Positions 1-29,820 of a stretch of DNA of 64,000 nucleotides are shown here, piece after piece. Source of the stretch: Endomicrobiales bacterium. Lineage in GTDB: Bacteria > Elusimicrobiota > Endomicrobiia > Endomicrobiales > CAWCFT01. The notes under the pieces were generated by a model that had not been told where the DNA came from, ran no database searches, and saw only the letters and a list, made by a program, of their open reading frames with translations. Where the stretch lies: NCBI GenBank assembly GCA_963794945.1, contig CAWCFT010000002.1, positions 1 to 64,000 on the forward strand. Direction: 5' to 3'. The position numbers and the translations under genes are program-made. Position 1 is the stretch's first letter. The number at the start of each line of letters is the position of its first letter.

Positions 1-3000
1 TACCAACCAGATGACCTTGAACTTCAGCTGGGCGGGGGTAAATGATTCCCCGGCTGGCCTTGCTAACTATATCCTAGAGGTTTCTACCGACCCGGCTTTC
101 TAGCGTAATCAGCTACAGCTCTGGTACCCTGCTTAACTAAGGCTTCGCTTACTCTTAACCGGTCCTCCTACACCTGGCGCGTTAATACCATGGATAACGC
201 ATTGAACTACACAACATCTACAGCTCAATATTTCGTAACCGTTGATACTTCACCGCCGCCGGCGATCTCGACCCTCACGGCGCCTTTAAATAACCTCACT
301 ACTAACCAGATAACTCTCACTTTCAACTGGTCGGCGGTTACTTCACCCCGGCTGGCCTCACTAACTATATCCTTGAAGTCTCTACTGACCCGGCCTTCGG
401 CGTGATCAACTATTCTTCCTGGGTTGTGATTAACCAGGCTACGCTTACACTTAACCAGTCCTCTTACACATGGCGCGTAAACACCATGGACAACGCCCTT
501 AACTATACAACCTCTACAGCTGTATTTTTCGTCACTGTTGACTACGACTTCGCCGCCGGCTGTAACTACACTCAATACACCTCCTAATAACCTCACCACC
601 AGCCAGATGGCCTTGAACTTCAGCTGGACAGATGTTACAGGTACCGGCGGCGGCATACTGACTACATACTTCAGGTAGCCACTGACCGGCGTTCTCGGTT
701 ATTAACTATTCGTCCGCCACGCCACTTACTAACGCTACTTTAACTCTTATCCAGTCCTCTTACACCTGGCGCGTTAATACCATGGACAACGCCCTTAACT
801 ACACAACCTCTACGGTCAATTTGTCCGTAGTGGTCGACACCACTCCGCCGCCGGCTGTCTCGAGCCTTACGGCTCCTTTAAATAACCTCACCACTAACCA
901 GATGACTTTGAATTTCTCATGGGGAACTGTCACTGATAGCCCGGCTGGACTTAAGAACTATATCCTTGAAGTCTCTACTTCACCTAACTTCTCGGGCATC
1001 ATAATTTCTTCATGGGTAGTTAATAACTCGGCTACTCTTACTCTTAACCAGTCCTCCTACACCTGGCGCGTTAATGCAATCGACAACGCCCTCAACTACA
1101 CTACTTCTACCGCTGTCTATTTCGTCACCGTTGACACTACTCCGCCACCGGCTGTGGCTACTCTAAATGCACCACTTAATAACCTCACTACTAACCAAAT
1201 GACTTTGACGTTTGGCTGGTCACCGGTTACTGACGCCCCGGCTGGCCTTGCTAACTATATCCTTCAAGTCTCTACTGACCCCGCATTCGGCGTGATCAAC
1301 TATTCTTCTTGGGTTGTTACTAACTCCGCTACGCTTACCCTTAACCAGTCCTCCTACACCTGGCGCGTTAATACAATGGATAACGCTCTTAACTATACCA
1401 CCTCTACTGTCAAATACTTCGTCACCGTTGATACTACACCGCCACCGGCTGTTAACGCACTCAGCACGCCGCTTATTAACTTAACTACCAACCAGATGAC
1501 CTTGAACTTCAGCTGGGCGGGGGTAACTGATTCCCCGGCTGGCCTTGCTAACTATATCCTTGAAGTCTCCACTGCCCCGGACTTCTCGGGCGTCATCACT
1601 TCTTCATGGGTTGTAAATAACTCAGCTACATTAACCCTTAACCAGTCTTCTTACACCTGGCGTGTCAACACTATCGACAACGCACTCAACTACACCACCT
1701 CTACTGTCAAATATTTTGTAACTGTTGACACTACTCCGCCGCCGGCTGTGGCTACACTCAACACACCTTTAAATAACCTTACTACTAACCAAATGACTTT
1801 GACGTTTAATTGGACTGGCGTCTCTGACGCCCCGGCTGGCCTTGCTAACTATATACTTGAAGTTTCTACTGACCCGGCTTTCGGCGTGATCAACTATTCT
1901 TCATGGGTTGTAAATAACACGGCTACCCTTACACTCAACCAGTCTTCTTACACATGGCGCGTCAACACCATCGACAACGCCCTTAACTATACAACCTCTA
2001 CAGCTGTCTATTTCGTTACCGTTGCCACTACTTCGCCTTCGGCTGTTTCGAGCCTTACGGCTCCTCTTAATAACCTTACCACAAATCAAATGACCTTGAA
2101 CTTCAGCTGGGCAGCTGTTTCAGGTACCGGCGGCGGCCTTGCTGATTACATACTCCAGGTATCTACTGACCCGGCGTTCTCGGTTATTAACTATTCGTCC
2201 GCCACGCCACTTACTAACGCTACTTTAACTCTTATCCAGTCCTCTTACACCTGGCGCGTTAATACCATGGACAACGCCCTTAACTACACAACCTCTACGG
2301 TCAAGTGGTCCGTAGTGGTCGACACCACTCCGCCGCCGGCTGTCTCGAGCCTTACGGCTCCTTTAAATAACCTCACCACTAACCAGATGACTTTGAATTT
2401 CTCATGGGGAACTGTCACTGATAGCCCGGCTGGACTTAAGAACTATATCCTTGAAGTCTCTACTTCACCTAACTTCTCGGGCATCATAATTTCTTCATGG
2501 GTAGTTAATAACTCGGCTTCATTAACACTTAACCAGTCCTCCTACACCTGGCGCGTTAATGCAATCGACAACGCCCTCAACTACACTACTTCTACCGCTG
2601 TCTATTTCGTCACCGTTGACACTACTCCGCCACCGGCTGTTTCGAGCCTTACGGCTCCTTTGAACAACCTCACCACCAACCAAATGTCTTTGACTTTTAA
2701 TTGGACTGGCGTCTCTGACGCCCCTGCTGGCATTGCTAACTATATCCTTCAAGTCTCAACCGACCCGGCTTTCGGCGTGATCAACTATTCTTCATGGGTT
2801 GTTACTAACTCCGCTACCTTAACCCTTAACCAGTCCTCCTACACCTGGCGCGTTAACACTATCGATAACGCCTTGAACTATACTACTTCTACAGCAGTGT
2901 ATTTTGTAACTGTTGACACTACACCACCTACGGCCGTGAGTACTCTCAATACGCCTTTGAACAGCCTCACTACCAACCAGATGACCTTGAACTTCAGCTG

Positions 3001-4410: not shown

Positions 4411-7400
4411 GCCTACAATTTCAAATCAAATTTTTCCCGCAAACGGAACTAAATCAAACCAGCTTTCCCAACTGTTTCAATGGCAAACTGCAACAGATGC
4501 TTTCATAGGTTTTCAAAGCTATACATTGCAGCTTGCGACATCCACAGATTTCGGACTTATAAGTTTTTCATCTACAACGCTTCTTACAAACGCCACACTT
4601 TCTAATTTAATCCAAAATATTTACTATTGGCGCATTGAGGCTACTGATAATGTTTTGAATAATTCTTATTCCACCACTACATTCAGTATTACTATTGACA
4701 CAACACCGCCTTCAGTGCCTGTGCTTTCGTCTCCACTTAACGGCACAGTTACAACACAAATGAATATCATTTTTATCACGAACCCTTCAGATGATTCCGG
4801 AGTAAGGGGAAATTCAGGGATTTCGACTTATAATTTTTATATATCCACAGATCCGGCTTTTAGCGTGTTCACGGCTTCACAGTCGCTTGCCGGTGTTTCA
4901 TTTGCCCAAACGCTACCGAGCGGCATATATTTCTGGCGTGTTAACGCAGTAGACGGTGCGGGAAACTACTCAGGTTTTTCATCAAACTATTCGGTAAATA
5001 TAGACACTTTCGGTCCGCTAATACATGATAACCAGCCAAATGTCACCCAGTGGCAAAATTTTGGGAACATGCTTTACAACGTGTCTTTTGAAGATGACCT
5101 CTCTCTATTAAACAATGTCGGATACAGTATCTATTCGTCCTCAACGGTATTTAACACTTCAACGCAGCTTGTTGGATGGACGGCCATTGCTCAAAATATA
5201 AACGCGGCAACCTACACTAATAATTTCGCGATCAACTTTAATGCTCTGCCTCAAAATACCACATGCTTTGTCGCAGTCAGCGCGACAGACAACCTGCTAT
5301 TGTCTACAACATACTATAACGCTTTCTTTGTCCTCAAAGACACCACAAACCCGACTATAAATGACACACAGACGGGAGACAACACATGGAGGTCAGTTAA
5401 TAATGGCGTTTACAGCGTAGGGTTCGGTGATTCCGGAGGTTCCGGGCTTCAGAGGTTCGATACAAGAGTTATGTCCGGCCCGCTGGGAAGCGGCACTGTG
5501 ATAGAAGACTGGACGACAAACTCAACGATTATAGCCAACACAACTTACTACAATACTCCATGGCCGCTTAACGCAAGCACGTGGGCAAACATGCCGGATG
5601 GCAAATCTTATGTGTCTGTCAGGGCCCTTGATAACTCATATTCAGCAGCGCTGGGTTATAACATCTCTTTCAGTACGGACGCATTCTATGTATTAAAAGA
5701 TGCAACACCGCCGATCGTCATAAACAACCAGGCAGGAGACACCACCTGGCGCAATTCTAATTACCAAACATACAATGTGTCATTTCAGGACGCAAGTTCA
5801 GGCTCAGGGATTTCACAGTTTGAGGTCAGGGCATCGACGATAGTTTACCCTCAAGGGGCTTCTTCGCCGCTTTGCCCCTGGACAGTAGTAGCTACAACAA
5901 GTACGTACCTTTACCAGCAACCCTGGATGCTCCCTCAGAGCGTCTGGAACAGCCTCATGCCGTATGTAAACAATTATATTTACGTAAGCGTCGCTGATGC
6001 CGCAGGAAATGTCACGACGCCTAATGCGTATGAATTCTTTGTTTTGCAAGACACTATACCTCCAACCATAACCGACAATATATCAGGAGGCGACAATACA
6101 TGGAGGCTTACAAACAACGGAGTTTATGACGTTGAATTTGCTGACCTCGGCGGCTCAAACCTGAACAAATTCCAGCTTCTCGCGTCCACCGTGGCCTATA
6201 ACACTCCACCTTACGTTTTTGGCTGGACCGATTCCGGAGTTAACATCTACAATCAGTCGTCTTTTACTTCCGGATTCCAGATGCCTAACACGCTCTTTAA
6301 CCTTCTATCTCAAGGCACGAACTATATCTCAGTTCAGGTTTCCGATATAGCAGGCTCGACAACAACGCTTAATTCAGCATTCAGGATATTGAAAGATACC
6401 ATTACGCCTTTCGGCATAGCGAACGCGCCTACATATTCAACCAGCTATACTTTCAATATACCCTGCACAATAAATTACGGTGGTAGCGGGTTAAAATACT
6501 TAAAACTTTATTATACTACACAAACACAGGCCCCGTATACTTACAACCTGTTCACTACAACGACGGCTGCGCCTATTTCGTTCACAGCCGCCAGCGAAGG
6601 TATCTATGGTTTCCAGCTTATAACCTACAATAATTGCAACCAAACCAGCCAACAGGACCCGCCATCGACAAATCTGGCGCCACAATCGACAACATACGTT
6701 GACATTACTCCACCCGCGATAAATAACCAGCAATCCGGAGACGATACCTGGCTCAACGCGCCTAAATCCGCCGGTTACTCCGTATACTTTAATGACACTG
6801 GCTCGGGGCTCAACACGGCCCAGTATATAATTCGTGCCGGGGCAAATTCCAACTCCGCTGTATTAAAGAACTGGACAAATATATTCCAGTCAACAAACAC
6901 GGCTTCGTACAATATGAACTGGCCTATTGATTTCAGCTCGTGCCAATCCAGCTTCAACTATGTTTCCGTAAGCGTATGGGACATGGCAGGCAACACAAAT
7001 ACGCCTTCGGGATATTCGTTCTATGTCAAGAAAGACACTGTCGCTCCTAATATATCTTACAACGAATTCGCCGCTGGAGGTGATAACACATGGCGCTCAG
7101 TAAGCCGCTCCGGCGGTTACAACGTGGATTTCTTCGACGGATTGTCCGGCCTTTCAAAAGCCGAATACAGAGTTTGCTCCAGCTCCTCAGATGTCACGGC
7201 CGTAATAGCGGACTGGCAAACTATAGCATCAGGTATATCTTCTTCTACCTATGCGACGAACTGGCAGCCAGCGTTCACGTCGCTCGTTGAGAGTACTACA
7301 AACTTTATTTGGGTGAGGCTTACTGATATAGCGGGTAACGCTTCAACAAACTATGCTTTTTACATATTCAAGGACACCACGCCCCCATTCTTTATCAATA

Positions 7401-16400: not shown

Positions 16401-19400
16401 TCGACTTCAGTTTTCTTTGTAGACCTGGCCGCCCCGCAGATCTCGTCAAATTCTGTATCGGGAGGAGACCTCACCTGGCGCAACAGCGCTAAAACCGGAG
16501 GTTACAACGTATCTTTCGCCGACCCTGCCGGTTTGCTCAACGCCTATTACACCATATATACAGGCCCGGGCATGACGGGATCTATGTGTAAAGACTGGAC
16601 GCCGATATTCACTAACCTCAATCAGACTACATATACCCAGAGCTGGCAGGTTGATTTCACATCCCTTCAGGAAGGGGGAACGAATTTTGTCTCAGTGAAA
16701 CTTGCAGACACTCTCGGCCACAGCGCTACTTACTATGATATATTCTTTGTGCTTGTCGATCTTACAAAACCATACTTTATCAACAACATGCCCGGCGGCA
16801 GTGATTCTACGTGGAGAAGTTCCGACCCCGGTGCCGTTTACAACGTTAATTTCTTCGACCTGCCGGCTAATGGTTCCAAGCTCTCTAAACTGCAAACCCA
16901 GTGCGTCACCGCTTCCGGCCAGACACTTTGGAACTGGACTGATACCATCACAAATATGAACACCACATCCTATTACAATAACTGGGATGTCTTCTTCTCG
17001 TCCTGTGTTGAAGGACAGAACTATATAAGCCTTCAGATTTTCGACAATGCTTCTAACAGCCAGCAGCTGCCTAACGCTTTCTTCGTGCTTAAAGATACTA
17101 CACCGCCGGTTATCTCCACAGGCTCGTGGGCCCAAAACCAGTGGTACGGAATTCCGCCTACTGTTAACATAGGGTTCAGCGATGCCGCCTCCGGGTCAGG
17201 CGTACAGAGCTTCTCTGTTATAACCTCCACAGCACCTAACATACCGGCGTCAAACTGGACCCTTGTGCAAACCACCAGTACATACTCGTACACCGCCAAC
17301 TGGCAGATACCACAAACGGTCTTTAACAGCATGGCTTCCGGGACAACAAACTACTTCTGGGTAAAAGCCTCGGATTTTGCTTTGAATGTCACTACCTGCC
17401 CCCAGGCTTTCATCGTGATGAAAGACACATCGGGAGTGACTATTGTTAACGGCGAAGCTGCCGGACAGGACTCCGTGTGGCGCTCAACTTCAACCGTGAG
17501 GTCATACAATGTTAATTTCGTTTCGCTAGGTCAGTCGCCTCTTGTAAGCGTGCAATACACGGCTTACACCCAACCGAACAGGCAAGGCACAATGCTGTTT
17601 GACTGGAAAGGTATACCTGAATTCACCGGCAGCGGAACTTCGTTCAATAACTGGCACATAGGCGCCATGGATTTCGCATCGCTTGTCGAATATACTACAA
17701 ACTATATATCCGTACAATGCACAAGCCTTTCAGGCTCAGCCACGACCTACAATGACGTGTTCTTTGTGAAGAAAGATACAACAGCGCCTACGGCGCCGTC
17801 TCTTACGCAACCGCTTAATGCTTCTGCGACCAACCAGACAACCGTGCCGTTCGGGTGGCTCGCCTCAAGCGACCTATCAAGCGGAACAACGTTGTATTAC
17901 ATGGCAGTTTCAACCGCGCCCGACTTCAGCTCGGTCATATTTTCATCTTACACTTCTTCACTTCTTGTAAGAGCTGTTTTGCCTCAGTCAACCTATTACT
18001 GGAAGGCAGAGGCAAAGGATGCGGCGAATAACTGGTCAAGCTACTCATCGCCCTGGACGGTTATTGTTGATACGACACCGCCCAACACCTTCGCGCTCTC
18101 GTCTCCCTTGGATGGTTTGACTACGAACTATATTAGCCCGCAATTCAGTTGGTCATCTACGACAGACAGCGGGCCTTCCGGGCTTTCGTACTACAGGCTT
18201 GATGTTTCTACTTCAACAACATTTGTGCCGCTCTATCTTTCATCAAGCACGCTGTCAACTTCATATACTCTCAACTTCCAGCAGTCGGCAACCTATTATT
18301 GGCAGGTAAAAGCTTTTGACAATGCCGGCAACTCGGTTAATTCAAACTCGTTCCGTACTATAGTCATAGACACGATAGCCCCGGCAGCGCCCCTGCTTAC
18401 ATCACCTATCAATAACTTTACCACCAACTATTCTAATGTGACGCTGACATGGGCAGCAACCGGATACGACCTTACACCAATAAACAACTATGTTGTTCAG
18501 CTATCTACAACGGCTAATTTCTCTACGGTCTATTCTTCAGCTTCAACATCAAGCACCACATATTCCGCGACGCTCAGTGTTTCCAGCACATACTTCTGGC
18601 AGGTGACGGCATACGACACGGCCGGCAACTTCAGCACGAACAATAACATATACAACATTATTTTCGATACGATACCGCCCTCGCAAGGATCGCTATTGTC
18701 GCCTTCCAGCGGCACATGCACGAACACTAACCTGATAAATTTCTCGTGGAATACTTCAACCGATTACGGGCCGGCGGGCACAGCGGGCTACGAACTCCGG
18801 ACCTCAACCGACCCAGCCATGAGCATTTACGTTTCAAGTATTACTTTGCTGACGCAAGCTAGCCTCTCTTACCCGCAGGGCCTCTATTACTGGAAAGTTC
18901 GCGCTTACGACCGCGCGTTCAACTACGGGCTTTTCAGTTCCACATGGTCCGTAATAATAGACACTACAGGCCCAACTCAAATTTCGAGCCTGACGGCCCC
19001 TCTTAATAACCTTACCACAAACCAGATGACGCTAAATTTCTCGTGGGGGGCGATTTCAGAAAGCCCGGCCGGAATGAAAAACTACATACTTCAGGTATCA
19101 ACCGACCCTGCTTTCTCGATCGTGAACTATTCATCTTGGGTAGTGCTGAACTCTGCGGCCATTACGCTTAACCAGTCGTCTTACACGTGGCGAGTAAACG
19201 CGATGGATAACGCTTTGAATTACACAACCTCAACCGCAAAATATTTTGTAACTGTTGACACAACGCCACCCCAGATAACCTTTAACCAGGGAAATACTAC
19301 AGGCTGGATAAACTCAAGCACCATGACAGGAATCGGTTTCGCCGATTCCTTAGTAGGGGTCATGATTTCATCATATACAGCTTGGACAGGCCCGCATAAT

Positions 19401-22400
19401 TCGGGCTCAAATGAAATTAACTGGACCACAATATTCAGTTCATCGCCTGCGCTCGCGGTATACTCAAGCCCATGGGCTGTCAATTTTAATCTGCTTGCGC
19501 CCGGAACGAACTATATTTCGCTAGTATCGCAAAATGCTGCGGGCAATATCACAGGCCTTACCGATGCCTTTTTAATATTAAAAGACACTATACCGCCGGC
19601 AAGCATTACAAACCTCTCGTCATACCAGGGAACATGGCCAACAGACAATGCCGGGTCCGTCACACTTTCTTGGGCTGCACCATCTGATGACGGGCTGACT
19701 GATATATCGAACAAGGCCGTCAGCGGTTACCTTGTTAAATATTCAACTTTTAATTTCACAAGCACAGCAGCGTTCCTGGCTTCCAACGCGACATTCTATC
19801 AGATATGGTCACCGCAGCAGCCTTCCGCTACGGAAACTCATGACGTTACCGGGCTGTTCGAAGGCGCCACCTATTTCATTGGCATTATACCGATAGATAA
19901 AGCCGGCAACTATTCAAATTCAATATCAACAACTTCAAACTGGGCATTGAGGGTCCCGCCGGGCCAGATAACAACACTAAATGCCACTACAGGGTCTTTC
20001 CCAGGCGAGGTTAATCTTACATGGATGGATCCCGGAGATAACTATTATGTAGGGACTTCAAGCGGGTATGTGGTCAAATACGCGACTTTTTCAATAACAA
20101 GTAATGCACTTTTCGCGGCGGCAACTACATTCGCCCAGACTTGGACCCCGCAGGCCGCGAGTACTTACGAACAGTACGTAGTCAACGGTTTAAACCCCGG
20201 AACTTCATATTACTTCGCCATGGAAGCCTATGACGCGGCTTCGAATTATTCTGTTATCTCGAACACCGTTTCGGCCGCCAGCGGCTCCTCCGGGGCGACA
20301 TCAGGCATTATCACATATGGAGACGCGACAAGCGGCTCTCCTGCGTCTCCTTCTTACAGAGAGTGGGTAGCGGCAAATTCCATTTATAACCCTAACCCGC
20401 CTGCCGCTCCCTATAGAGCCCAGGCTGCCGCCTCAACAATAAGGTACGTGCGCCTGCAGTCATGTAACGTTCTGCGCGACCAGAAAATGATGGGTGTGCT
20501 GACCTATAACGGCAACACAGCGCCTAACGGAGATCTTTACCTACAGCTATGGGACGGAACCGCTAACGGCGGCGCAGGCGGCTGGACAAGCCTTGGAATG
20601 ATCAACAGTTCGGAAGGCAATATGTACAGCACTTACAGAGGATTTGACCTTGCCTATGAACAGAATTCCGGTCGTGTACTCGTTTCTTACTTCAACGGTA
20701 CTACCGGGAAATTAAGCTATCAAGTATGGAGCTCAACCCAGGGAGCTTTTGTTGGCTCGGGCACCTTGAACTGCGGAACCCTGACGGGCAGTATTTATTG
20801 GGTCAAGTTGAAATCAAGGCCGGGTTCAGACCAGATAATGGTCGCGGCATCCGACTCCAACTCAGCGCTCTTTGGCGGCATATGGAACGGGCCGACAAAC
20901 AGCTGGATAGTCTCAAGCACAAAAACGTTCTCAACAGCGCTGTCTACCGGTACCAAACAATGTTTTGATATCGCGTGGGAAAACCAATCCGGAAGGGGAA
21001 TGATACTCTGGGGCACAGGGACCACCACGGATTTCGCGCTTTGGTCGTCAACCGCAAACGTATGGCTTTCAACCGGGATTGCGGCAGTGAACATAGGTGT
21101 CGCTGAAAACTGGGCTTCGCTAGCTGCTGACCCCATCTCAAATAGGATAGGGTTCAGCAGTATAGATAGCTCAAAACACTGGTATACCGATATATGGACT
21201 GGAACCGCGTGGAATACTGCGTCAGAACTCAGCACAACGCTTGAAACAAACAACGCAAGGTGCGCCGATATAGCGTGGGAAAATAACTCCGGCAATTGTA
21301 TAGCTGTGTGCGTTAATGTCAGCTCGACATCTATGGAGTGGTCAGAATCTTCAGCGGGCGGCGCATGGTCAGCTCTGGCTAAGGATTCAGCCTATAACTG
21401 GTCAGCCTATATAGCGTATCTTGAACTTATTTCAGACCCGAATACTAATAAAATAATAGCAACCGGCATAGATATCTCGGGGTCTTTGCGCACAAGGAAC
21501 TGGAGCTCAGGCTGGTCCGGAGGCTCAAGCCTTTGCGATACGGTCTCAGGCTGGACAGATGGCACCCTACCAAGCTATATGCCGGCACAGCTCGCGCTCG
21601 ACCTGCAGGATGACGTGCCTCCTATTATTACTGTCACAGGCCAGACGCCACTTCAAGGAGTTTGGATCAACAACAACAATGCCGAAATTTTCTCCGCGGT
21701 GACTTTCACCGATTCTGGAGGGTCGCATCTTGCTCAATTAAATTCAGCTGTTTATACGGGCCCTCAACTGGGTGGAGCAGCGCTAAAATCATTTACTGCC
21801 GGGTCTCCGGAAATAACCGGGATGAACACTGACTCATATTCAACTCCATGGTCTCTTTCCGCCACGACATTCAACCTTCTGCAGAGAGGTCAAAATAACT
21901 ACGTGTCACTTCAAGTGTCGGACGGCGCAGGAAACACTACAAAGTCGTATGATGTGTTCACGGTTTGGAAAGATACAGAACCGCCTCAGATTTCAAGCAC
22001 AACTGTAAACTACGGCTGGCAGAATGCGGGCGTTACATACAGCAATATCAGCATAGCAGACCAGCCGGGCCTTTCCGGCCTTGGCGCGGTTCAGTATTGC
22101 GCCTATACCAGCTCAGCCAATGCCGGCACGCAGGTGTTAAACTGGACAAACTTGCCCATATCGACGGGTTCAACAAGCGCTTACACAGGATTTACTATTG
22201 CCTTTAACCTGCTTGCCGCAAACACCAACTACATAAGCATGAGAGCATGGGATGTGGCGGGAAATACTACCACGGTAACTGACTTTTTTACGGTCTTAAA
22301 GGACACCCAGCCGCCCTCAACTCCAAGTGATTTTACCGCGACCCTTGGCCCTTACCGCGGAACTGTGCTCCTTACATGGACAGCACCCGGTGATGACGGG

Positions 22401-25400
22401 GCCTATGGAAACAATTACACTGGGAATTACATTATAAAATACGCAACTTATTCAATTTCATCGGTAGCGCTTTTTAACGCCTCTACTACATTCATACAGT
22501 ACACACCCGCTGTACCGGCAGGCTCACCGGACTCATTGACACTTTCCGGGCTTGCAACCGGCACGACTTTCTATTTTGCCCTGGAATCGACCAACAAGGC
22601 GAATAACGTTTCAGGCGTCGCTTATTCCGGAGGCATAATGCCCAGGGCAAGTAACATATATATTAACGAGGTATGCCCTACCGCGTCAGGCTCGAACAAC
22701 TGGGTAGAGCTTTACAACAATACCTCATCAAGTTTCTCGCTTACAGGGTGCCAGCTCTACTACAAACAGGGAACTATTGCATCGTCAGTTTCAGAAACAT
22801 CCGTATGGACAGGAGGCACAGGGCTTTCAATCGCTTCAGGAACATTCGTTGTGATACCCGGCCTTACACTGAATGGCAGCGCGTCTTACACCGTTGACTT
22901 AAGAGATTCTTTGAACAGGGTTATAGACCAGGTTCAGTGGCCGGTTATGCCTTCCGGCTACAGTTATTCAAGGATATCTGATGGGAACGCGAATTTCTTT
23001 GAAGCTAACCCTACGCCCACCATGGGTTATGCGAACTCTGTTTCAACGGGCGTTGTATGCATAAATGAGATAAATTACGCCTCGTCGCTGCAAACGATAG
23101 AGCTTTACAACACGTCCTCAACCACGCAGACACTGGTGAACTACATCATCAGGAACTCGAACGGTGTGCCTTTCAGGTTCACAAGAACTATACCGCCTTA
23201 TGGTTTCTCAGGGTTTGATTCTTCTTCAGTTGATAATAGCGGGAACAGCTGGACCGCTTGTTTCGGCGCTTCAGGACTAAAACCAACGGCTGATTTTATA
23301 GCGCTGGTAAGCAGCCCTTCGGGCCAGGTGATCGACCGCGTTACATGGAATGCGGGCTCAAATAACAACTATCTTAACTACCAGACAGTGGGAGTGCCGT
23401 TTGACATGCCAGCGAACGGAGGCATATCTTCTCCAAACACCATCGGCAGGTATCCTGACGGCGCAAACACGTTTAACAATAAGAATGATTTTTCAGTGTA
23501 TTCCGCGCCTTCTTTTGGCGGCAGGAACTATAACCCGACACCTCTTGCTTCCAACAGCGTTGACTATCCCGCGACAGGCACCCGCTTGCCGGCGGCCTTC
23601 AAGATAGATACCGCGCTTGGCTCTAATGTTTCGGCCGGCTACAATAACGCCATCTGGTTCGTTCGAACAGGGGGGACAGCTGATGGTAAATCGCCTCACA
23701 TATTCAGGCTGCAGGACATCGGTTTTAACCTTTCAAGCCTAACTGCCCAAACGACCATTCAGATCGGCTCAGCGCTAAGCGATTTTGACGGAAACAAGCT
23801 TATCAACGGAACCATATACTCGGTCATTTATAATATCGATAACGGCACCAGCGCGGCTCCGCAGATAACGGTCAATTCCGTATACTACGATGCAACGATA
23901 AGTTCCGCTGTTGTATACCCGATAATGTTCCAACAAGTAAATAATGGCGCTATCGCTGGAGTGTACAGGATAGACATAACCAACAACGCGCAATCCGGAG
24001 GCAACAACATTCAGCTTTATGATGTCAAGGCAAGGTTCACTGACGGTTCAGGCAACCCTCTGAACGAGACTCAGGTGCAGAATCTCATAACTAACGTTTG
24101 CCTTGTTGCCGACAACCTTGTTTACGGCACCCTGGGCACTTACCAGCCGGCCATTGACACGGGTACACTTGCTTCTGTAAGCGGCAATTTCATCACTGTT
24201 GATTCTTCCGGATCGATGGATATACCGGTCGCTATGCCCCAGGGCTCATTATCCACGATAGCGCCACAGCAGACACAAACCTACTTCCTGGGTGTAACAA
24301 TGGCCAACAATGCTTCAAACCAGTCACCAAACACGTTTAGGGTTAAAATGATACCCGGCACTGAAACCATATGGCGCGATGCCCCATCCCTTGTAACACA
24401 ACCCACGAATGCAGGCGCAGAAGTATTTGTGCCAAGCCCTTACATAATAGCACCTGCTTCGGCGCCTGCCGGCTCAGTGTACCCGCTGCCTGTAAGTCAG
24501 CCTGGAAAGACTCTTGCTGTATTTGGCCAACCATATATAGACGGAGCCATTAACAACAACTATGCTGCTTCTTCCGACGGTAATATATATATGGTTAGCG
24601 ATAACGGCTCGAGTATGTGGACATTCAATGCTGGCGGGGCAGTAACAACGATCTATGATTCAAACCTTGAAGAAGACGCCCCATACTTATACGCGGGGAC
24701 GAACAGCGGTTTGCTTTATAAACTGCAAAATAACGGCTCGTCCGTTTCACAGGTTTGGCAGTATCCGCTAAACCTTGGTTCAGCAGTTAGTTCGGATATA
24801 ACTTACTACGGCGGGACTGCTAACACGCCATACTTGTACGTAGGGACGAATGACGGACATCTATATAAAATAGATAACGGCGGCAACCTTGTCTCCGGAT
24901 GGATCACTTCCCCGGGCATAAACGGCGGCATGTTCGGCTATCCCGTAATAGACCCAAGCACTACATTGAACGACAACGGTGTATGGCTCGGAACCTCCGG
25001 TGGCTCATTCTATAGGGTAAATAACGGCGATAATGGAAGCATTACGGCCTCATCCACAACCGCACCTTCGATCCATACTTCACCTTTCTTAACGGTTGGC
25101 AGCAGCACTCACTTGATCTATTACGGCGACGACAGCGGAACGTTAAGGTGCCGCTACGCTTCAAATCTCAACAGTATACCGGCGGGCTGGACCGACGTCC
25201 ATGTAAGTTCGCCCATAAGGAGTTCGCCGTATGTTGATTCTGGCTACCCTGGGGCTACCAACGCTATTTATTTCGGCTGTGACAACGGCAAATTCTACAA
25301 AGTTGACGTTTCAAGCGGCGGTATATACTGGACATACCAGACGAACGGGCCTATACGCACCTCTCCTGTCGTTGGCAATAATGACGATGTGTATTTCGGT

Positions 25401-25619
25401 TCTGATGACGGCTATATGTATGGGTTAGACACTGATGACGGGACACCCACTATCGCAGGTTTCCCTGTAGCTACAGGGGCTGAAATCAGATGCAGTCCAA
25501 TATATGATATAGGTTATTTAGATTCCCCGGACCATCATCCGTACAACGATTATTTAATATTCTGTTCAAACGATGGAAAAGTTTATTGCATCGATATACC
25601 GGATCCAAGCAGTCAATAG
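1..25619 (+). CDS. Giant extracellular/surface repeat protein (>=~8,500 aa, 5'-partial), reconstructed across 5 frameshifts: FN3/Ig-like repeats, propeller-like domains, 2 lamin-tail domains, C-terminal PQQ-type beta-propeller
   Basis: ORFs 782-9358, 9279-10595, 10640-12553, 12672-14105, 14263-16017 and 15885-25619 join by single-base changes at ~9325, ~10558, ~12549, ~13991 and ~15859. Each join restores a repeat or domain motif present elsewhere in the same protein, and the repeats continue to position 1. Confidence 0.85.
782..9358 (+). CDS. Fragment 1 of giant protein: 99-aa FN3/Ig-like tandem repeats, ~115-aa modules, two WTAxGxDG-type FN3 domains
   Basis: 2858-aa ORF with recurrent DTTPP...W...Y...YTWRVxxxDNALN motifs. 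The listed Met is internal to a repeat. Confidence 0.8.
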   Translation: MDNALNYTTSTVNLSVVVDTTPPPAVSSLTAPLNNLTTNQMTLNFSWGTVTDSPAGLKNYILEVSTSPNFSGIIISSWVVNNSATLTLNQSSYTWRVNAIDNALNYTTSTAVYFVTVDTTPPPAVATLNAPLNNLTTNQMTLTFGWSPVTDAPAGLANYILQVSTDPAFGVINYSSWVVTNSATLTLNQSSYTWRVNTMDNALNYTTSTVKYFVTVDTTPPPAVNALSTPLINLTTNQMTLNFSWAGVTDSPAGLANYILEVSTAPDFSGVITSSWVVNNSATLTLNQSSYTWRVNTIDNALNYTTSTVKYFVTVDTTPPPAVATLNTPLNNLTTNQMTLTFNWTGVSDAPAGLANYILEVSTDPAFGVINYSSWVVNNTATLTLNQSSYTWRVNTIDNALNYTTSTAVYFVTVATTSPSAVSSLTAPLNNLTTNQMTLNFSWAAVSGTGGGLADYILQVSTDPAFSVINYSSATPLTNATLTLIQSSYTWRVNTMDNALNYTTSTVKWSVVVDTTPPPAVSSLTAPLNNLTTNQMTLNFSWGTVTDSPAGLKNYILEVSTSPNFSGIIISSWVVNNSASLTLNQSSYTWRVNAIDNALNYTTSTAVYFVTVDTTPPPAVSSLTAPLNNLTTNQMSLTFNWTGVSDAPAGIANYILQVSTDPAFGVINYSSWVVTNSATLTLNQSSYTWRVNTIDNALNYTTSTAVYFVTVDTTPPTAVSTLNTPLNSLTTNQMTLNFSWAGVTDSPAGLANYILEVSTAPDFSGVITSSWVVNNSATLTLNQSSYTWRVNTIDNALNYTTSTVKYFVTVDTTPPPAVATLNTPLNNLTTNQMTLTFNWTGVSDAPAGLANYILEVSTDPAFGVINYSSWVVNNTATLTLNQSSYTWRVNTIDNALNYTTSTAVYFVTVATTSPSAVSSLTAPLNNLTTNQMTLNFSWSAVSGTGGGLADYILQISTDPAFSVINYSSATLLTNATLTINQSSYTWRVNTMDNALNYTTSTVKWSVVVDTTPPPAIASLTAPLNNLTTNQMTLNFSWGTVSDSPAGLKNYILEVSTSPNFSGIIISSWVVNNSASLTLNQSSYTWRVNAIDNALNYTTSTAVYFVTVDTTPPPAVATLNAPLNNLTTNQMTLTFGWSPVTDPPAGLANYILEVSTDPAFGVINYSSWVVNNTATLTLNQSSYTWRVNTMDNALNYTTSTVKYFVTVDTTPPTISNQIFPANGTKSNQLSQLFQWQTATDAFIGFQSYTLQLATSTDFGLISFSSTTLLTNATLSNLIQNIYYWRIEATDNVLNNSYSTTTFSITIDTTPPSVPVLSSPLNGTVTTQMNIIFITNPSDDSGVRGNSGISTYNFYISTDPAFSVFTASQSLAGVSFAQTLPSGIYFWRVNAVDGAGNYSGFSSNYSVNIDTFGPLIHDNQPNVTQWQNFGNMLYNVSFEDDLSLLNNVGYSIYSSSTVFNTSTQLVGWTAIAQNINAATYTNNFAINFNALPQNTTCFVAVSATDNLLLSTTYYNAFFVLKDTTNPTINDTQTGDNTWRSVNNGVYSVGFGDSGGSGLQRFDTRVMSGPLGSGTVIEDWTTNSTIIANTTYYNTPWPLNASTWANMPDGKSYVSVRALDNSYSAALGYNISFSTDAFYVLKDATPPIVINNQAGDTTWRNSNYQTYNVSFQDASSGSGISQFEVRASTIVYPQGASSPLCPWTVVATTSTYLYQQPWMLPQSVWNSLMPYVNNYIYVSVADAAGNVTTPNAYEFFVLQDTIPPTITDNISGGDNTWRLTNNGVYDVEFADLGGSNLNKFQLLASTVAYNTPPYVFGWTDSGVNIYNQSSFTSGFQMPNTLFNLLSQGTNYISVQVSDIAGSTTTLNSAFRILKDTITPFGIANAPTYSTSYTFNIPCTINYGGSGLKYLKLYYTTQTQAPYTYNLFTTTTAAPISFTAASEGIYGFQLITYNNCNQTSQQDPPSTNLAPQSTTYVDITPPAINNQQSGDDTWLNAPKSAGYSVYFNDTGSGLNTAQYIIRAGANSNSAVLKNWTNIFQSTNTASYNMNWPIDFSSCQSSFNYVSVSVWDMAGNTNTPSGYSFYVKKDTVAPNISYNEFAAGGDNTWRSVSRSGGYNVDFFDGLSGLSKAEYRVCSSSSDVTAVIADWQTIASGISSSTYATNWQPAFTSLVESTTNFIWVRLTDIAGNASTNYAFYIFKDTTPPFFINNKAAYDPLWYTGSRNYNVQLFDYASAGRFDKLNSLQYLANSQPALSGATLIPWTTAALLIDATSYTSGITISQFNLLNEGTNYISLLGSDLAGNTTTWADAFTIKKDITGPTIYNYQAGDGQWRGINNGLYSVYFQDLLSGVSNFQTVAYSGAGMTGQLLDNWRTVLSTQSAYFNQPWQLQNQTFNALQGGQNYISVKCFDAAGNSSVQNDVFYVLKDTVAPIVNNNQSVDNSWHNAGGTLYNVAFHDDGGSNLSYAQYQIYSAQDQSGTLIMPWTNIATAINTSDYTSPWSINFSSAVSGTNYVSVVAVDNAGNSTVSQDVFYVNVDTTPPAAITNLSITGTSQPEGQINMTWTAPGDDGNGGGAAVNYIVKYATFAITNAGGWAAASLYSSNWAPQNPGTTENRSITGLNILQTYSVAIITVDKAGNLSQLSNTVSPIAPGPDVTPPGVITNLTASPGTVAGQILLTWTAVGNDGYTGTATSYDLRWRNDIIINTSNWDNSTDYIQNPLWTPQSAGNTETELLNGFTIGTTYYFAMRVSDQSLNTSSTSNCGSSVPQVAQATNGEAVWGSGALPYSRAEYWQPPVWGALQSGATAAATIRWVKEASCPVLRNEKMVGVCNLVSGNVGNLYIQKWDGVNQVLGIWKPTWTD
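9279..10595 (+). CDS. Fragment 2 of giant protein: propeller-like domain (YDLAYEQQSGR, FDVAWE, DIAWE repeats)
   Basis: Paralogous to ~20300-21610 of the last fragment. Continuous with fragment 1 after removing one base at GTTCTG 9323-9328. Confidence 0.75.
   Translation: MWAIYTYKNGMASTKFWEYGSPLGQINSVASALDTRYRGYDLAYEQQSGRVLIAYYNGTTGHLSYSLWSSTANAYVQSGTLTMPGTTGLIRWVRLEPRPASNDIMLVAEDANDFISAVPWVNGSFDIAMSSSVGTSNISTRQSFDVAWETFNQRAMILYGSSNATYRTAFCMWSSSATQWTVGYSTGPNIGAASAWIKLAASPAASSNNIGLTSLDNSSHWNVGMWNGNIWSATGQPGEPTDATGMESSAVRGTDIAWEHDGSMCLANAVFASTSCFSFVAWNQTNGWYNINGTALNSLTNAQRDTYAFTAAGGYLESLTLYPDPSSNEIMFLCSDSQSGLDSRLWNGSGWTLGANLETSLSGTTAYESYAFAYNKQDNIPPTITDNMFGGDNTWRITNNGTYNVDFFDTGGSHLSLFQVMITSGPGKQAQSNRGGQL
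10640..12553 (+). CDS. Fragment 3 of giant protein: Ig/FN3-like modules
   Basis: Same YYWRVxAxDxAGN and NYVSV motifs; flanked by frameshifts at ~10558 and ~12549. Confidence 0.75.
   Translation: MPNSVFNNLEQGINYVSVEAQDMAFNATTIVDAFRIYKDTVPPTVPALILPANSAILTNINPLLGWSTSTDATSGVNNYTVQVSTDPINFTPLVYSNTLSVSQSTITPSINSDVYYWRVQAQDVAGNYSAYSSTYSIMIDTIPPVIVNNTAPDYVWHASSGQVYSVNFYDPLSNLNHPLSMLTTAYYKIFTSTGMSGIQITPWTPINTQIISSTSYATNWQLRSSDWNLLQNGTNYVSVRADDLAGNTSWWTDAFFVRKDTVPPSVPLLTSPTNGTYQSSSTVTFAWAQAIDINSGINSYDIYVSTSQLFGVYSSSANTTQNSQSIALASQGAFYWQVRAKDNAGNYSVWSSTSLVLIDTSPPAIPLLVSPSSNTITNATQFTFNWSDSYGGGAGLEYYVFNMSTSPYFTNLSASALPTTSYYTLPGSLTSGIYYWRVMAQDNAGWYSLWSSTYSVMVDTTAPAISNFEAGGDHTWRNAIEPGGYNVDFAKANLATLNNIEYSVYSQPAQGGTAVINWTTVTSTYSPYSPAFVPPLNQYFYTLNFGVNFNLLANGTNYISVMASDLAGNTSTWIDAFVILKDVTPPTLTNLVSGDYAWRNSSGTLYNVQLNDTGSGLSKFQIMISTSNTAAPLLGWF
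12672..14105 (+). CDS. Fragment 4 of giant protein: ~115-aa modules
   Basis: KDTxPP...NYVSV...DAF motifs; the tail goes out of frame after GTTCTG 13989-13994. Confidence 0.75.
   Translation: MAGNTSTYSNVFFILKDTIPPTGIDNETINRGWFASDPGPIWFVNFFDTPIPGRNPGSSMLNSVSYRIKTSTEGVILDWTPVATNLNTTYYVTPFAINFNAAIPGINHVDVMASNFAGNTTVFIDAFTVEKDSTVPLIQVMFATNTVTWINSSQLYSVNFYSQGPSNLSSIQYAVNDNPGFTGTNLIPWTDIATPPLNAPSYTTPWHVAFSQLENGGTNYVSVRAWNLTGSTATIIDAFRVLKDVTNPTISDPMYGGDTVWRSTPAAGGYNVNFFDGPPNGSLLNSFQLKVTSGPAQTGSVYQNWGSSETLNIGTTYYINSWQLSNNTWSNMQQGYNYVSALVYDYAGNSNELTDAFFVLKDTTPPQITDNQTGDNTWRSSNTGVYSVSFVDTGGSNLQRFEVSASTSASGYPLLNTWTTVQYNINSGSYNTPWQMPASVLAKPALGCYRLYIRPRVRQCGSGKFIGNCHAGILCSG
14263..16017 (+). CDS. Fragment 5 of giant protein: ~115-aa modules
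   Basis: Same module motifs; the frame is open back to ~13992 and shifts again at ~15859. Confidence 0.75.
   Translation: MTGTQVCGWTSMFSGLQLATTNVIWNPGISNWNLLAAGTNYIYLRAWDIAGSTNTLPDYAFTVRKDTFGPTIINDVNGYNTWLSQDPGQIWNTGFADTLSGLATAYYVINSGPALSGQNITPNIQLFAFAGAGISTTNVNFALPVSTFSLLSEGTSYVTVTAFDNLGNQTTFYDIFYIRKDTEAPSCQVIQSSYTAHNQQDLNSINVQFFDKGGSGLNSIQYRICPSTGNGTAYILDWTNIQAPPVGTTSYVQPWTIPFYPLPNNTTSYVSIQASDLAGNTTLYVDAFRIYKVAIGPEIVDNQIGDNTWRNTLAGVTYNVNFVSNSGLNLDKFGIMVTTTTDGSGVNYTTWSVIASNIGAQNYLSSWQIQPDSYFFNTWPQGKNYVHVQVSDLVPSSTTLYNAFYILKDTAPPFITNLQQNATFYASLAGISYNVNFADAGIGISTAQYMVSYSSTDPLDTQLMPWTTIFSSAPQPSFTNSWQVNFASLAQWATNYVSVRCFDGLGYETTSFAVFTILKDTTPPNAFSLLSPLTAPPLITRWYLSHGIQLLTTAHPELMITGCRFPHLPHLCRLYLTPTQQAHP
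15885..25619 (+). CDS. Fragment 6 (C-terminal) of giant protein: FN3/Ig modules, propeller-like domain, two lamin-tail domains, PQQ/BamB-like beta-propeller
   Basis: 3244-aa ORF. INEVCP...WVELYN and INEINY...IELYN are LTD-like (~22650-23530). WTYQTNGPIRTSPVV...VYFGSDDGYMYGL is PQQ-like (~24500-25600). Confidence 0.85.
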   Translation: MVSFSWNSTADNGPSGINDYRLQVSTSASFVPVILDTYTTGTSINSVNLVNSSTYYWRACAFDNAGNQSTFTGPWSFIIDTTPPTVPILVSPLNGMPTDQVSIAFSWSAQDIGPSGIKNYEITISTSITDFFACYDSITVQDPVSVTLALGANTYYWKVKATDNAMNSSVYSSTSVFFVDLAAPQISSNSVSGGDLTWRNSAKTGGYNVSFADPAGLLNAYYTIYTGPGMTGSMCKDWTPIFTNLNQTTYTQSWQVDFTSLQEGGTNFVSVKLADTLGHSATYYDIFFVLVDLTKPYFINNMPGGSDSTWRSSDPGAVYNVNFFDLPANGSKLSKLQTQCVTASGQTLWNWTDTITNMNTTSYYNNWDVFFSSCVEGQNYISLQIFDNASNSQQLPNAFFVLKDTTPPVISTGSWAQNQWYGIPPTVNIGFSDAASGSGVQSFSVITSTAPNIPASNWTLVQTTSTYSYTANWQIPQTVFNSMASGTTNYFWVKASDFALNVTTCPQAFIVMKDTSGVTIVNGEAAGQDSVWRSTSTVRSYNVNFVSLGQSPLVSVQYTAYTQPNRQGTMLFDWKGIPEFTGSGTSFNNWHIGAMDFASLVEYTTNYISVQCTSLSGSATTYNDVFFVKKDTTAPTAPSLTQPLNASATNQTTVPFGWLASSDLSSGTTLYYMAVSTAPDFSSVIFSSYTSSLLVRAVLPQSTYYWKAEAKDAANNWSSYSSPWTVIVDTTPPNTFALSSPLDGLTTNYISPQFSWSSTTDSGPSGLSYYRLDVSTSTTFVPLYLSSSTLSTSYTLNFQQSATYYWQVKAFDNAGNSVNSNSFRTIVIDTIAPAAPLLTSPINNFTTNYSNVTLTWAATGYDLTPINNYVVQLSTTANFSTVYSSASTSSTTYSATLSVSSTYFWQVTAYDTAGNFSTNNNIYNIIFDTIPPSQGSLLSPSSGTCTNTNLINFSWNTSTDYGPAGTAGYELRTSTDPAMSIYVSSITLLTQASLSYPQGLYYWKVRAYDRAFNYGLFSSTWSVIIDTTGPTQISSLTAPLNNLTTNQMTLNFSWGAISESPAGMKNYILQVSTDPAFSIVNYSSWVVLNSAAITLNQSSYTWRVNAMDNALNYTTSTAKYFVTVDTTPPQITFNQGNTTGWINSSTMTGIGFADSLVGVMISSYTAWTGPHNSGSNEINWTTIFSSSPALAVYSSPWAVNFNLLAPGTNYISLVSQNAAGNITGLTDAFLILKDTIPPASITNLSSYQGTWPTDNAGSVTLSWAAPSDDGLTDISNKAVSGYLVKYSTFNFTSTAAFLASNATFYQIWSPQQPSATETHDVTGLFEGATYFIGIIPIDKAGNYSNSISTTSNWALRVPPGQITTLNATTGSFPGEVNLTWMDPGDNYYVGTSSGYVVKYATFSITSNALFAAATTFAQTWTPQAASTYEQYVVNGLNPGTSYYFAMEAYDAASNYSVISNTVSAASGSSGATSGIITYGDATSGSPASPSYREWVAANSIYNPNPPAAPYRAQAAASTIRYVRLQSCNVLRDQKMMGVLTYNGNTAPNGDLYLQLWDGTANGGAGGWTSLGMINSSEGNMYSTYRGFDLAYEQNSGRVLVSYFNGTTGKLSYQVWSSTQGAFVGSGTLNCGTLTGSIYWVKLKSRPGSDQIMVAASDSNSALFGGIWNGPTNSWIVSSTKTFSTALSTGTKQCFDIAWENQSGRGMILWGTGTTTDFALWSSTANVWLSTGIAAVNIGVAENWASLAADPISNRIGFSSIDSSKHWYTDIWTGTAWNTASELSTTLETNNARCADIAWENNSGNCIAVCVNVSSTSMEWSESSAGGAWSALAKDSAYNWSAYIAYLELISDPNTNKIIATGIDISGSLRTRNWSSGWSGGSSLCDTVSGWTDGTLPSYMPAQLALDLQDDVPPIITVTGQTPLQGVWINNNNAEIFSAVTFTDSGGSHLAQLNSAVYTGPQLGGAALKSFTAGSPEITGMNTDSYSTPWSLSATTFNLLQRGQNNYVSLQVSDGAGNTTKSYDVFTVWKDTEPPQISSTTVNYGWQNAGVTYSNISIADQPGLSGLGAVQYCAYTSSANAGTQVLNWTNLPISTGSTSAYTGFTIAFNLLAANTNYISMRAWDVAGNTTTVTDFFTVLKDTQPPSTPSDFTATLGPYRGTVLLTWTAPGDDGAYGNNYTGNYIIKYATYSISSVALFNASTTFIQYTPAVPAGSPDSLTLSGLATGTTFYFALESTNKANNVSGVAYSGGIMPRASNIYINEVCPTASGSNNWVELYNNTSSSFSLTGCQLYYKQGTIASSVSETSVWTGGTGLSIASGTFVVIPGLTLNGSASYTVDLRDSLNRVIDQVQWPVMPSGYSYSRISDGNANFFEANPTPTMGYANSVSTGVVCINEINYASSLQTIELYNTSSTTQTLVNYIIRNSNGVPFRFTRTIPPYGFSGFDSSSVDNSGNSWTACFGASGLKPTADFIALVSSPSGQVIDRVTWNAGSNNNYLNYQTVGVPFDMPANGGISSPNTIGRYPDGANTFNNKNDFSVYSAPSFGGRNYNPTPLASNSVDYPATGTRLPAAFKIDTALGSNVSAGYNNAIWFVRTGGTADGKSPHIFRLQDIGFNLSSLTAQTTIQIGSALSDFDGNKLINGTIYSVIYNIDNGTSAAPQITVNSVYYDATISSAVVYPIMFQQVNNGAIAGVYRIDITNNAQSGGNNIQLYDVKARFTDGSGNPLNETQVQNLITNVCLVADNLVYGTLGTYQPAIDTGTLASVSGNFITVDSSGSMDIPVAMPQGSLSTIAPQQTQTYFLGVTMANNASNQSPNTFRVKMIPGTETIWRDAPSLVTQPTNAGAEVFVPSPYIIAPASAPAGSVYPLPVSQPGKTLAVFGQPYIDGAINNNYAASSDGNIYMVSDNGSSMWTFNAGGAVTTIYDSNLEEDAPYLYAGTNSGLLYKLQNNGSSVSQVWQYPLNLGSAVSSDITYYGGTANTPYLYVGTNDGHLYKIDNGGNLVSGWITSPGINGGMFGYPVIDPSTTLNDNGVWLGTSGGSFYRVNNGDNGSITASSTTAPSIHTSPFLTVGSSTHLIYYGDDSGTLRCRYASNLNSIPAGWTDVHVSSPIRSSPYVDSGYPGATNAIYFGCDNGKFYKVDVSSGGIYWTYQTNGPIRTSPVVGNNDDVYFGSDDGYMYGLDTDDGTPTIAGFPVATGAEIRCSPIYDIGYLDSPDHHPYNDYLIFCSNDGKVYCIDIPDPSSQ

Positions 25620-29390: not shown

Positions 29391-29436
29391 AGATTCAGCC
29401 CCTATAATACCTTCACTTTCTACAACCGCTTTCAAA

Positions 29437-29820
29437 ATGTTCGATGTTGATATCGACCTCAAGCGCAGGATGGCTGGCAGGCAGCAGTCGATGTATGTTA
29501 TGACAGGGAAAACCGACGGAAGCGATATAGTCTATCTTGAAGGAACGATCAAAACCGAAGGCACCGACCTATCTTTGGCGATTGGGGAAAAGTCCGGGGA
29601 AGGCAATGTTTACAAACATTTCCTGTTCGTGGAAAATAGCGGCTCGCCGGTTTACAAGATCGTATGCAAGGTACGGGTTCCGAAAATCATCAAGAACCCT
29701 GTCTTGAAGACTGAAGAAGGGGTAGAGATCAAGGCCCAGAAGACGCTTGAAGACGATAATTACGCGTATTATAAATTCTTCACCAACGCATTCAAGCCGT
29801 TCAGAGTAGAATCAAAATAA
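29437..29820 (+). CDS. Hypothetical protein, probably the frameshifted C-terminal extension of the PorV-family gene (joined ~518 aa)
   Basis: No SD before 29437. The frame is open upstream through a Pro/Ala/Ser linker, and a +1 shift near GTCTG 29381-29385 joins it to the PorV frame. Confidence 0.5.
   Translation: MFDVDIDLKRRMAGRQQSMYVMTGKTDGSDIVYLEGTIKTEGTDLSLAIGEKSGEGNVYKHFLFVENSGSPVYKIVCKVRVPKIIKNPVLKTEEGVEIKAQKTLEDDNYAYYKFFTNAFKPFRVESK

Follow-up and report, generated by a model that had tools for sequence, protein, structure and literature searches.

The window analyzed here, 64,000 nucleotides of DNA from an Endomicrobiales bacterium of the phylum Elusimicrobiota, makes up the start of contig C2 in its genome bin (G000; 2.9 Mb, 19 contigs, 86% complete, 5.9% contaminated). 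Its first 25,619 nucleotides carry six overlapping open reading frames (ORFs) that belong to one giant gene. Long-read consensus errors are most likely all that breaks it, and its 5′ third is likely to be on another contig of the bin, C14. The product, of ~12,800 residues, is probably an exported surface fiber (an adhesin), and its N terminus is a Sec11-type (S26) peptidase, predicted to be cytoplasmic and to cut the leader off a 48-residue peptide encoded beside it. We consider this reading as a whole likely. Comparisons were made across 31 genomes of the order, G000 included.

The part of the gene in the window, and the six frames that make it up, are as follows.

1-25619, + strand: giant gene, 3′ two-thirds (~8,540 codons from the contig edge), running off the contig start
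686-9358, + strand: frame 1 of the giant gene, stop to stop
9273-10595, + strand: frame 2, stop to stop
10505-12553, + strand: frame 3, stop to stop
12510-14105, + strand: frame 4, stop to stop
13948-16017, + strand: frame 5, stop to stop
15786-25619, + strand: frame 6, stop to stop

Neighboring pieces overlap, each in a different frame from the one before, and no in-frame nonsense codon occurs across the 24.9 kb after position 686. Positions 1-686 are an error-rich stretch with at least five further frame changes. The preliminary description had read the six ORFs as one gene, and comparison with relatives bears this out. A single open frame of 8,360 residues in G008 matches all six pieces along one diagonal (offsets 144-172, 37-47% identity). 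Relatives' frames also cross all five breaks: with an X placed at each break, the best local alignment crossed J1 in 9 of 11 long relative frames and J2 through J5 in all 11. Complete giant frames with the same order of head and tail are present in G003 (10,468 residues), G012 (10,482 residues) and, as a short form, G005 (4,174 residues); the G011 gene has ~12,345 codons in five pieces. The junction words quoted earlier are present at the junctions as given, and joining 782-25619 does yield 8,278 residues (24,838 nt minus one net base). Neither a signal peptide nor a clear ribosome-binding site accompanies any of the five downstream starts, in contrast to the genes at 25653, 28263 and 36092, which do have start signals by the same comparison; separate downstream genes with their own Shine-Dalgarno sequences and signal peptides had been named as what would speak against a single gene. 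ATG 782 was rejected as the gene start: it is the Met inside a repeat word, RVNTMDNALNY, with no upstream purine-rich site and no signal peptide. These results support one reading frame interrupted by single-base errors.

The five breaks are each a change of one base.

9323-9328, + strand: J1, one base too many, in GTTCTG
~10553-10562, + strand: J2, one base short, in a C/G run
12547-12552, + strand: J3, one base too many, in GTTCTG
13989-13994, + strand: J4, one base too many, in GTTCTG
~15856-15862, + strand: J5, one base short, in a C/G run

Short reads had been proposed as a check, and a 151-nt contig of run X1 matches 13,971-14,122 without mismatch and with one base fewer at 13,990, which places J4 in frame. 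Runs X2 and X3 gave short dissimilar pieces only. The extra-base breaks share a sequence word with errors elsewhere in the genome. Among 370 candidate extra-base junctions genome-wide, CAGAAC was found in 51 and GTTCTG in 31 (expected, 7.3 each); 78 of the 370 hold one or the other (~15 expected), compared with 18 of 348 missing-base candidates. Of all 5-mers in G000, CAGAC shows the strongest depletion (observed/expected ratio, 0.71; 0.92-1.36 in stretches from seven relatives). The error motif also lies at two breaks of the giant gene on C14, and of 8 other split genes checked in the window, 5 have it. The error strikes only part of the sites, as 29 intact CAGAC/GTCTG sites are left in the giant gene. 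The error word is CAGAC read as CAGAAC, and a base modification may underlie it. Systematic consensus errors at one sequence word in nanopore assemblies have been linked to base modification (PMC10687267); the pattern here is alike in being systematic at one word, CAGAC to CAGAAC, for which both methylation and the platform would be presumed. A genome-wide indel rate from overlapping frames (24.7 per 100 kb) was not clearly above that of relatives' stretches (5-23). This count was dropped because ordinary gene overlaps dominate it, and motif enrichment alone was used.

The same extra-base error at CAGAC/GTCTG splits many genes; sites in the window are 27759, 41106, 46671, 52865 and 58039. A type III methylase and restriction gene pair (L062:459-4906, corresponding to G000:C16 45,459-49,906, - strand) is a candidate for methylating CAGAC.

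Extension to the left had been recommended, and the missing third was located on C14.

C14 53,671-66,655: giant gene, 5′ third (~4,330 codons), with signal peptide, conserved head and the same repeats

This part has about seven breaks of its own, two of them on the error motif. Upstream of it on C14 lie an opp operon and genes for CCA-like, HD-GYP-like, kinase-like, PqqD and radical SAM proteins. In G003, G005, G011 and G012, a single giant gene sits between these upstream genes and the ones that follow it in the window (for the sorting-domain protein, the PorV-like barrel, the transferase and the ABC-2 pair, then polysaccharide genes), although the outermost genes vary somewhat. The first unit in the window and the last unit on C14 are reciprocal best matches, 90% identical (next best, 78-81%). 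If these end units overlap, the total is 4,328 + 8,444 codons, or ~12,770; otherwise it is ~12,870 or more. The 5′ third is therefore likely on C14, in a gene of ~12,800 codons or more by this sequence comparison. The earlier statement that the protein is larger than 8,278 residues, with repeats reaching the window edge, was correct, and its size was underestimated since a third of the gene sits elsewhere.

The giant frame on C14 runs at 66,655 into a mobile element.

C14 66,654-68,305 (L029:17654-19305): IS110 element, 1,650 nt

Its recombinase is of the DEDD type (NF033542, 209 bits against a cutoff of 140, plus PF01548 and PF02371). CT cores are present at both ends (C14 66,654-55 and 68,304-05), and the joined ends would create TTGACT-17 nt-TATAAT, a sigma-70 promoter. 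The left end folds as two stem-loops, and CTCCT and TTTAAA, which correspond to the cut site CTCCT/TTAAA, lie in the first; this guide assignment was made by eye from one energy fold. In the bridge-RNA model used for comparison (PMC11208160), IS110 elements share with the C14 element a DEDD recombinase, a core dinucleotide at the two ends, a promoter that forms when the ends join and a two-loop RNA that fits the target. To its right, the C14 element borders not on the giant gene but on the 3′ end of a thioredoxin gene, where the same CT core and TTAA occur. The two junctions each resemble a true insertion, at different sites, so that the C14 contig would represent either a real rearrangement or a join between two IS110 copies. 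Read on the opposite strand, the predicted target CTCCT/TTAA(A) becomes TTAAAGGAG, a word with 29 occurrences genome-wide; four are in the repeats of the giant gene, and several immediately precede start codons. This element may aim at ribosome-binding sites and at the giant gene.

These junctions bear on a second account, to which we give nearly even chances: the breaks are errors, but the gene of this strain is truly split, IS110 copies at two target sites having recombined to leave a truncated 4,336-residue 5′ product on C14 and a window part without a start. The cores, the joined-end promoter, the guide loops that match the target and the thioredoxin flank with the same site all fit such a split, and long reads should easily span a 1.65-kb element. 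On the other side, the bin holds one full IS110 copy, with no second full copy and no contig end carrying IS110, and the matching site at window position 281 is empty. A bin that is incomplete and partly contaminated would also allow a mixed population or a join of collapsed copies. If the rearrangement is real, the window part of the gene would be an orphan in this strain, and the success of the leftward extension is to that degree qualified: the 5′ third was found, but it ends at IS110, and the part in the window may have lost the connection to its start. A true split is compatible with a single giant gene at the level of the family.

The giant frame opens with the Sec11-type S26 peptidase, which is in frame with the signal peptide and head in 7 of 9 genomes (G000, G004, G005, G006, G008, G011 and G013), drawn from six families. 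The catalytic residues in G000 are S13, H51 and D73, with H and D invariant in 13 aligned sequences. The closest solved structure is SEC11A (E = 2.5e-6), and the domain also matches archaeal signal peptidase I and SipW. In G000 and its relatives, a signal peptide identified by eye (a hydrophobic stretch plus A-x-A) precedes the conserved RIKTVE. No membrane segment lies before the S26 active site, and the A-x-A site is beyond the hydrophobic stretch. With no preceding membrane segment, the S26 domain should face the cytoplasm. The S26-head combination occurs in the same 9 of 31 genomes as the Trp-rich propeller domain described below, G000 included, and the kinase-like gene occurs in these nine plus one fragmented genome, a co-occurrence among kin that are not independent. 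The kinase and S26-head genes are single copy in G000. Among 19 named loci, the S26 nucleophile is Ser in 8 and Cys (GGCMRP) in 11 (L045, L046, L050, L051 and L054-L060); all five fused forms have Ser. Members of the family tend to be named after this small domain.

Between the radical SAM gene and the giant gene lies a gene for a 48-residue peptide, KKPYxxPxIxSEKIIETAALACGKC...C...S, which was found in all nine genomes. It has three invariant Cys residues, an invariant last Ser, and YxxP and [FI]ET leader words, and neither Pfam nor NCBIfam yielded a family for it. Scanning the genome collection with the peptide gave 21 loci, 19 of them titled Elusimicrobiota or Endomicrobia; these named loci overlap the genome set, so the counts are not additive, and since the search patterns derive from this clade, the true range may extend further. 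PqqD and radical SAM genes each accompany the peptide in 20 of the 21 loci, and the kinase-like and S26 genes each in 19. The giant head is present in 15, and the sequence of the remaining six stops within about 2 kb of the peptide. In every named locus that runs far enough (15 of 15), the giant head follows the peptide. The PqqD protein matches PF05402 (E = 2.8e-17), its best NCBIfam matches being lasso-type PqqD below the cutoff, and the radical SAM/SPASM protein matches PF04055 and PF13186. The kinase-like protein has the Walker A motif GRSGAGKS, and PADLOC gave no match for it or for the nucleotidyltransferase. Two candidate members of the cassette lie in the window, on the far side of the giant gene.

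29821-30504, + strand: NTP_transf_5 nucleotidyltransferase, LppN-like cassette member (PF14907, E = 1.5e-26)
31727-33216, - strand: ABC-2 permease and ATPase pair, candidate exporter, in the same place in the relatives read

The closest described pathway is that of the linear polyphosphorylated peptides (LPP) of Bacillota, encoded by LppA/B/K/S/D/N, in which the archaeal-type peptidase LppS cuts after FET, helped by an RRE domain, and an HprK-like kinase polyphosphorylates a Ser (main text of PMC13381572). The two have in common a signal peptidase I of the archaeal type with Ser-His-Asp (Ser to His is 38 residues here and 39 in LppS), a discrete RRE (PqqD here), an NTP transferase (PF14907 here), a YxxP...[FI]ET leader, the lack of a lasso cyclase and a location beside polysaccharide genes. 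The kinase-like protein here may correspond to the HprK-like kinase of LPP, the likeness consisting of the Walker A motif and a weak TIGR04352 match. The LPP leader is YxxPxVLxHQxIxFETxxS with phosphorylated Ser3, whereas the peptide here, YxxPxIxSEKI[IF]E[TQ]AALACGKC, has a shorter spacer, no VLxHQxI, no Ser3 and an invariant last Ser. LPP clusters include an MsbA-like exporter, in place of which the ABC-2 permease/ATPase pair is found here. The LPP product is linear, with phosphorylation primary, whereas the radical SAM/SPASM gene and three invariant Cys residues here point to cross-links. Finally, LPP belong to Bacillota, while in Elusimicrobiota the peptidase is fused to or placed before a giant surface protein; the main text of the LPP paper does not contain "radical SAM," "giant" or "Elusimicrob." Judged by its genes, the cassette is one that would work like the LPP pathway but is not a member of it, since its leader and its exporter differ.

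SynChlorMet and GeoRSP cassettes combine PqqD with radical SAM/SPASM and kinase-like genes. The cassette here has one radical SAM gene only and scores far under their cutoffs (ScmE, 117 against 400; ScmF, 78 against 400; ScmD, 26 against 100; GeoRSP radical SAM, 102 against 400). A literature search turned up no report of a peptide cassette paired with the giant gene; it was not exhaustive and did not return the LPP paper either.

The collinearity, the fusion of S26, signal peptide and head in one frame, the gene order and the co-occurrence are read from the sequences themselves, and the folds are model predictions. What the fiber and the cassette do, we infer as follows, taking the peptide steps, other than cross-linking, from the like steps of the LPP pathway. 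The fiber would be exported by Sec and cleaved at A-x-A, leaving the peptidase tethered to the inner membrane by the fiber's signal anchor. PqqD would hold the YxxP leader of the peptide, and cross-links in its CxxC...C core would be made by the radical SAM/SPASM enzyme. Phosphorylation, probably on the invariant last Ser, may be the work of the HprK-like kinase, and the nucleotidyltransferase may decorate the peptide, which the S26 peptidase would cut after IET. The fiber itself would reach and stay on the surface by a SprA/PorV-type route with the downstream sorting-domain protein, its head outermost.

It is also conceivable, though we think it rather unlikely, that the cassette and the giant gene share only an envelope/polysaccharide locus and its regulation, the fusion being a harmless stop loss in one clade and the peptide doing nothing to the fiber. 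The S26 gene is separate in 10 of 15 named loci, with other genes between S26 and the giant gene in several, and LPP clusters are located in capsule loci, with no giant gene mentioned in the main text (PMC13381572). Such neighborhood alone would not predict that the giant gene follows the peptide in all 15 loci long enough, that the fusion is kept across six families, or that the nucleotidyltransferase lies beyond the giant gene. Improbable, in our view, is a role of the S26 domain as a SipW-like signal peptidase dedicated to releasing the giant protein to which it is fused: its matches to archaeal signal peptidase I and SipW, and its direct fusion to a signal peptide, would suit that role, but the active site should be cytoplasmic while the A-x-A site is beyond the hydrophobic stretch, and the neighboring peptide carries the LPP-type [FI]ET cleavage word.

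Less probable still is that the C14 and window parts come from two different paralogous giants, one half from each. The end units are sister copies and not identical, and the bin is incomplete; against this, the head, S26 and kinase occur on C14 only, the propellers and tail on C2 only, and both flanks are joined by one gene in four relatives. Real frameshifts, through decay after an IS110 break that relaxed selection or through programmed frameshifting, are very improbable despite J2 and J5 lying off the error motif and being crossed by no listed short-read contig, given the short-read contig with J4 in frame, the motif enrichment in both orientations relative to the gene (which speaks against ribosomal frameshifting), the 24.9 kb free of in-frame nonsense codons and the unrelated genes split likewise.

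Within the single giant gene, the window part encodes the following domains.

2-5000, + strand: ~17 tandem 99-residue FN3/Ig-like "A" units
5000-8378, + strand: tandem "B" units, ~115 residues (weak Pfam Big_13 match; Atlas Big_3/Big_13 look-alikes, Ig-like)
8381-9071, + strand: two FN3-type "C" units (APGDDG motif)
9089-10420, + strand: first Trp-rich beta-propeller, within which J1 falls
10420-20280, + strand: mixed A and B stalk units, the last two being C
20286-21608, + strand: second Trp-rich beta-propeller, fold closest to PHL/PLL lectins
22641-23535, + strand: two lamin-tail domains (PF00932)
23526-24456, + strand: domain X, ~310 residues, conserved, no family name
24456-25619, + strand: C-terminal PQQ/BamB-type beta-propeller

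Profile mapping of the whole giant, with units split by breaks joined for counting, gave S26, the head, ~53 A, ~37 B and 5 C units, two Trp-rich propellers, two lamin-tail domains, X and the PQQ-type propeller. The protein is thus predicted to have a head of four jelly rolls, ~95 Ig/FN3-like units, two lectin-like propellers and a base of lamin tails, X and a PQQ-type propeller. Ser and Thr make up 24% and Asn 9% of the window part. An Ig/FN3-like unit spans ~3.5-4 nm, and ~95 of them would measure roughly 350 nm if extended. The head and tail are constant across relatives, while the stalk varies from 17 to ~95 units; a variable stalk between constant ends is what an adhesin would be expected to have. 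The head was modeled from a relative (L048), as the G000 copy is broken, and the model (pTM 0.91) has four jelly-roll-like domains; a search of longer proteins returned 6 relatives of the head among 8,000 scored candidates. In the model of the Trp-rich propeller (pLDDT 83, pTM 0.88), PHL/PLL lectins occupy ranks 1-23 among the matches listed (TM 0.57/0.70, 14% identity), which suggests lectin activity. Neither the head nor this propeller has a sequence match in the PDB, and no named look-alike of domain X was found.

A five-unit, 1,485-nt block is tandemly duplicated at window positions 1487-4413, with some units 100% identical, which reflects either recent stalk expansion or an assembly effect.

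Directly downstream of the giant gene are two genes that may serve its export.

25653-28229, + strand: exported protein, split into three here, with signal peptide, PQQ-type propeller, FN3 and T9SS type-A-like sorting domain
28263-29820, + strand: PorV/PorQ-family outer-membrane barrel (NF033709, over the cutoff), of which 29437-29820 is probably the broken-off C-terminal part

The first is a single frame of 850-1,130 residues in relatives. The gene order recalls Bacteroidota's type IX secretion system (T9SS), with its PorV shuttle and SprA: a PorV/PorQ barrel and a type-A-like sorting-domain protein follow the giant gene, and G000 has one SprA homolog over the cutoff, on C5 near 41,000. The giant resembles type-A cargo in having an N-terminal signal peptide. 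It differs in lacking a C-terminal sorting domain: its last element is a propeller blade, and PF18962/TIGR04183 matched the downstream protein only. C25/PorU gave no match in G000 with the query used, for which the control gave no match anywhere, in a bin that is 86% complete. The giant would presumably cross the outer membrane by this route. None of the T9SS papers listed mentions Elusimicrobi-. A predicted complex between the giant's last propeller and the downstream propeller scored 0.73, against 0.59 for the control, and nothing is claimed from it. About 20 PorV-like paralogs are spread over most G000 contigs.

Several observations weigh against parts of the reading proposed here. On the breaks, some of the alignments that cross them pair with sister repeats, owing to the repetitive nature of the protein. 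The contig that corrects J4 has a depth of 2 and extends 19 letters to the left of the break, short of the 31-letter mark for bridging. J1, J2, J3 and J5 are crossed by none of the listed short-read contigs, and an unlisted contig in the 9148-9811 bin could span J1 and agree with the window. On the join, 13 of the 23 changed codons between the first window unit and the last C14 unit are silent, which makes the end units sister copies or another strain's alleles and the join and total length inexact. On the fusion, S26 is a separate gene in 2 of 9 genomes (G003 and G012) and is fused in only 5 of the 15 named loci, so that the fusion is dispensable. On the cassette, the TIGR04352 match of the kinase-like protein is weak (E = 0.003) and far below the cutoff, and locus L059:6336-10563 has the peptide, S26 and giant genes with no PqqD, radical SAM or kinase gene within 10 kb upstream. 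On the domains, the best fold match of the head, a single-chain C1q head, is weak (Z 7.4, root mean square deviation 5.2, 214 aligned), and lectin activity is suggested by fold.

Other features of the genome were recorded alongside. A large polysaccharide locus (window 34372-64000) directly follows the giant-gene unit and encodes Wza, Wzc, a Wzy-like protein, a flippase, many glycosyl- and methyltransferases, and LVIVD-repeat, ATP-grasp and FemAB-like proteins. Some contig ends have overlaps (98%, 85%) or a 1.45-kb repeat in common, namely the C14 end with the C16 start, the C13 end with the C19 end, and the C2 end with the C10 start and C9; these could be of use in closing the genome. Other very long frames occur on C1, C3, C4, C6, C8, C16 and C18, up to 6,761 residues unbroken, along with runs of adjacent long frames; the run on C4 near 258,000-318,000 may be another falsely split giant gene.

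Elusimicrobiota are among the phyla rich in proteins of >5,000 or >10,000 residues, which are poorly characterized (PMC11573180; bioRxiv 10.1101/2023.11.21.568195). That such giants exist in the phylum, and that the breaks are assembly errors, is ordinary; less so is the leader peptidase fused to the giant together with the peptide cassette. According to the available text of the same two sources, giants of Omnitrophota often have an N-terminal peptidase near the signal peptide, of the C39 or S8 type, whereas here it is an S26/Sec11 peptidase tied to a peptide cassette; that text does not describe an S26-fused family, though the preprint supplements might list members. For annotators, the assembly carries a warning: the CAGAC-to-CAGAAC error is present in it, and the family is being named after its small S26 domain.

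The role of LPP and paeninodin peptides is stated as unknown in the main text of the LPP paper (PMC13381572). An LPP-type leader peptidase fused to a giant surface protein points to a cell-surface role for the peptide. As a speculation to which we attach little confidence, fiber synthesis might be hard-wired to a ribosomal peptide pathway, with one membrane-bound leader peptidase made per fiber and the cross-linked, phosphorylated peptide used on the fiber as an attachment tag, a cap or a link to polysaccharide. If true, this would be the first biological role for LPP-like peptides. Since the peptide is small and defined and the five enzymes are small and could be expressed in a laboratory strain, its chemistry is directly testable.

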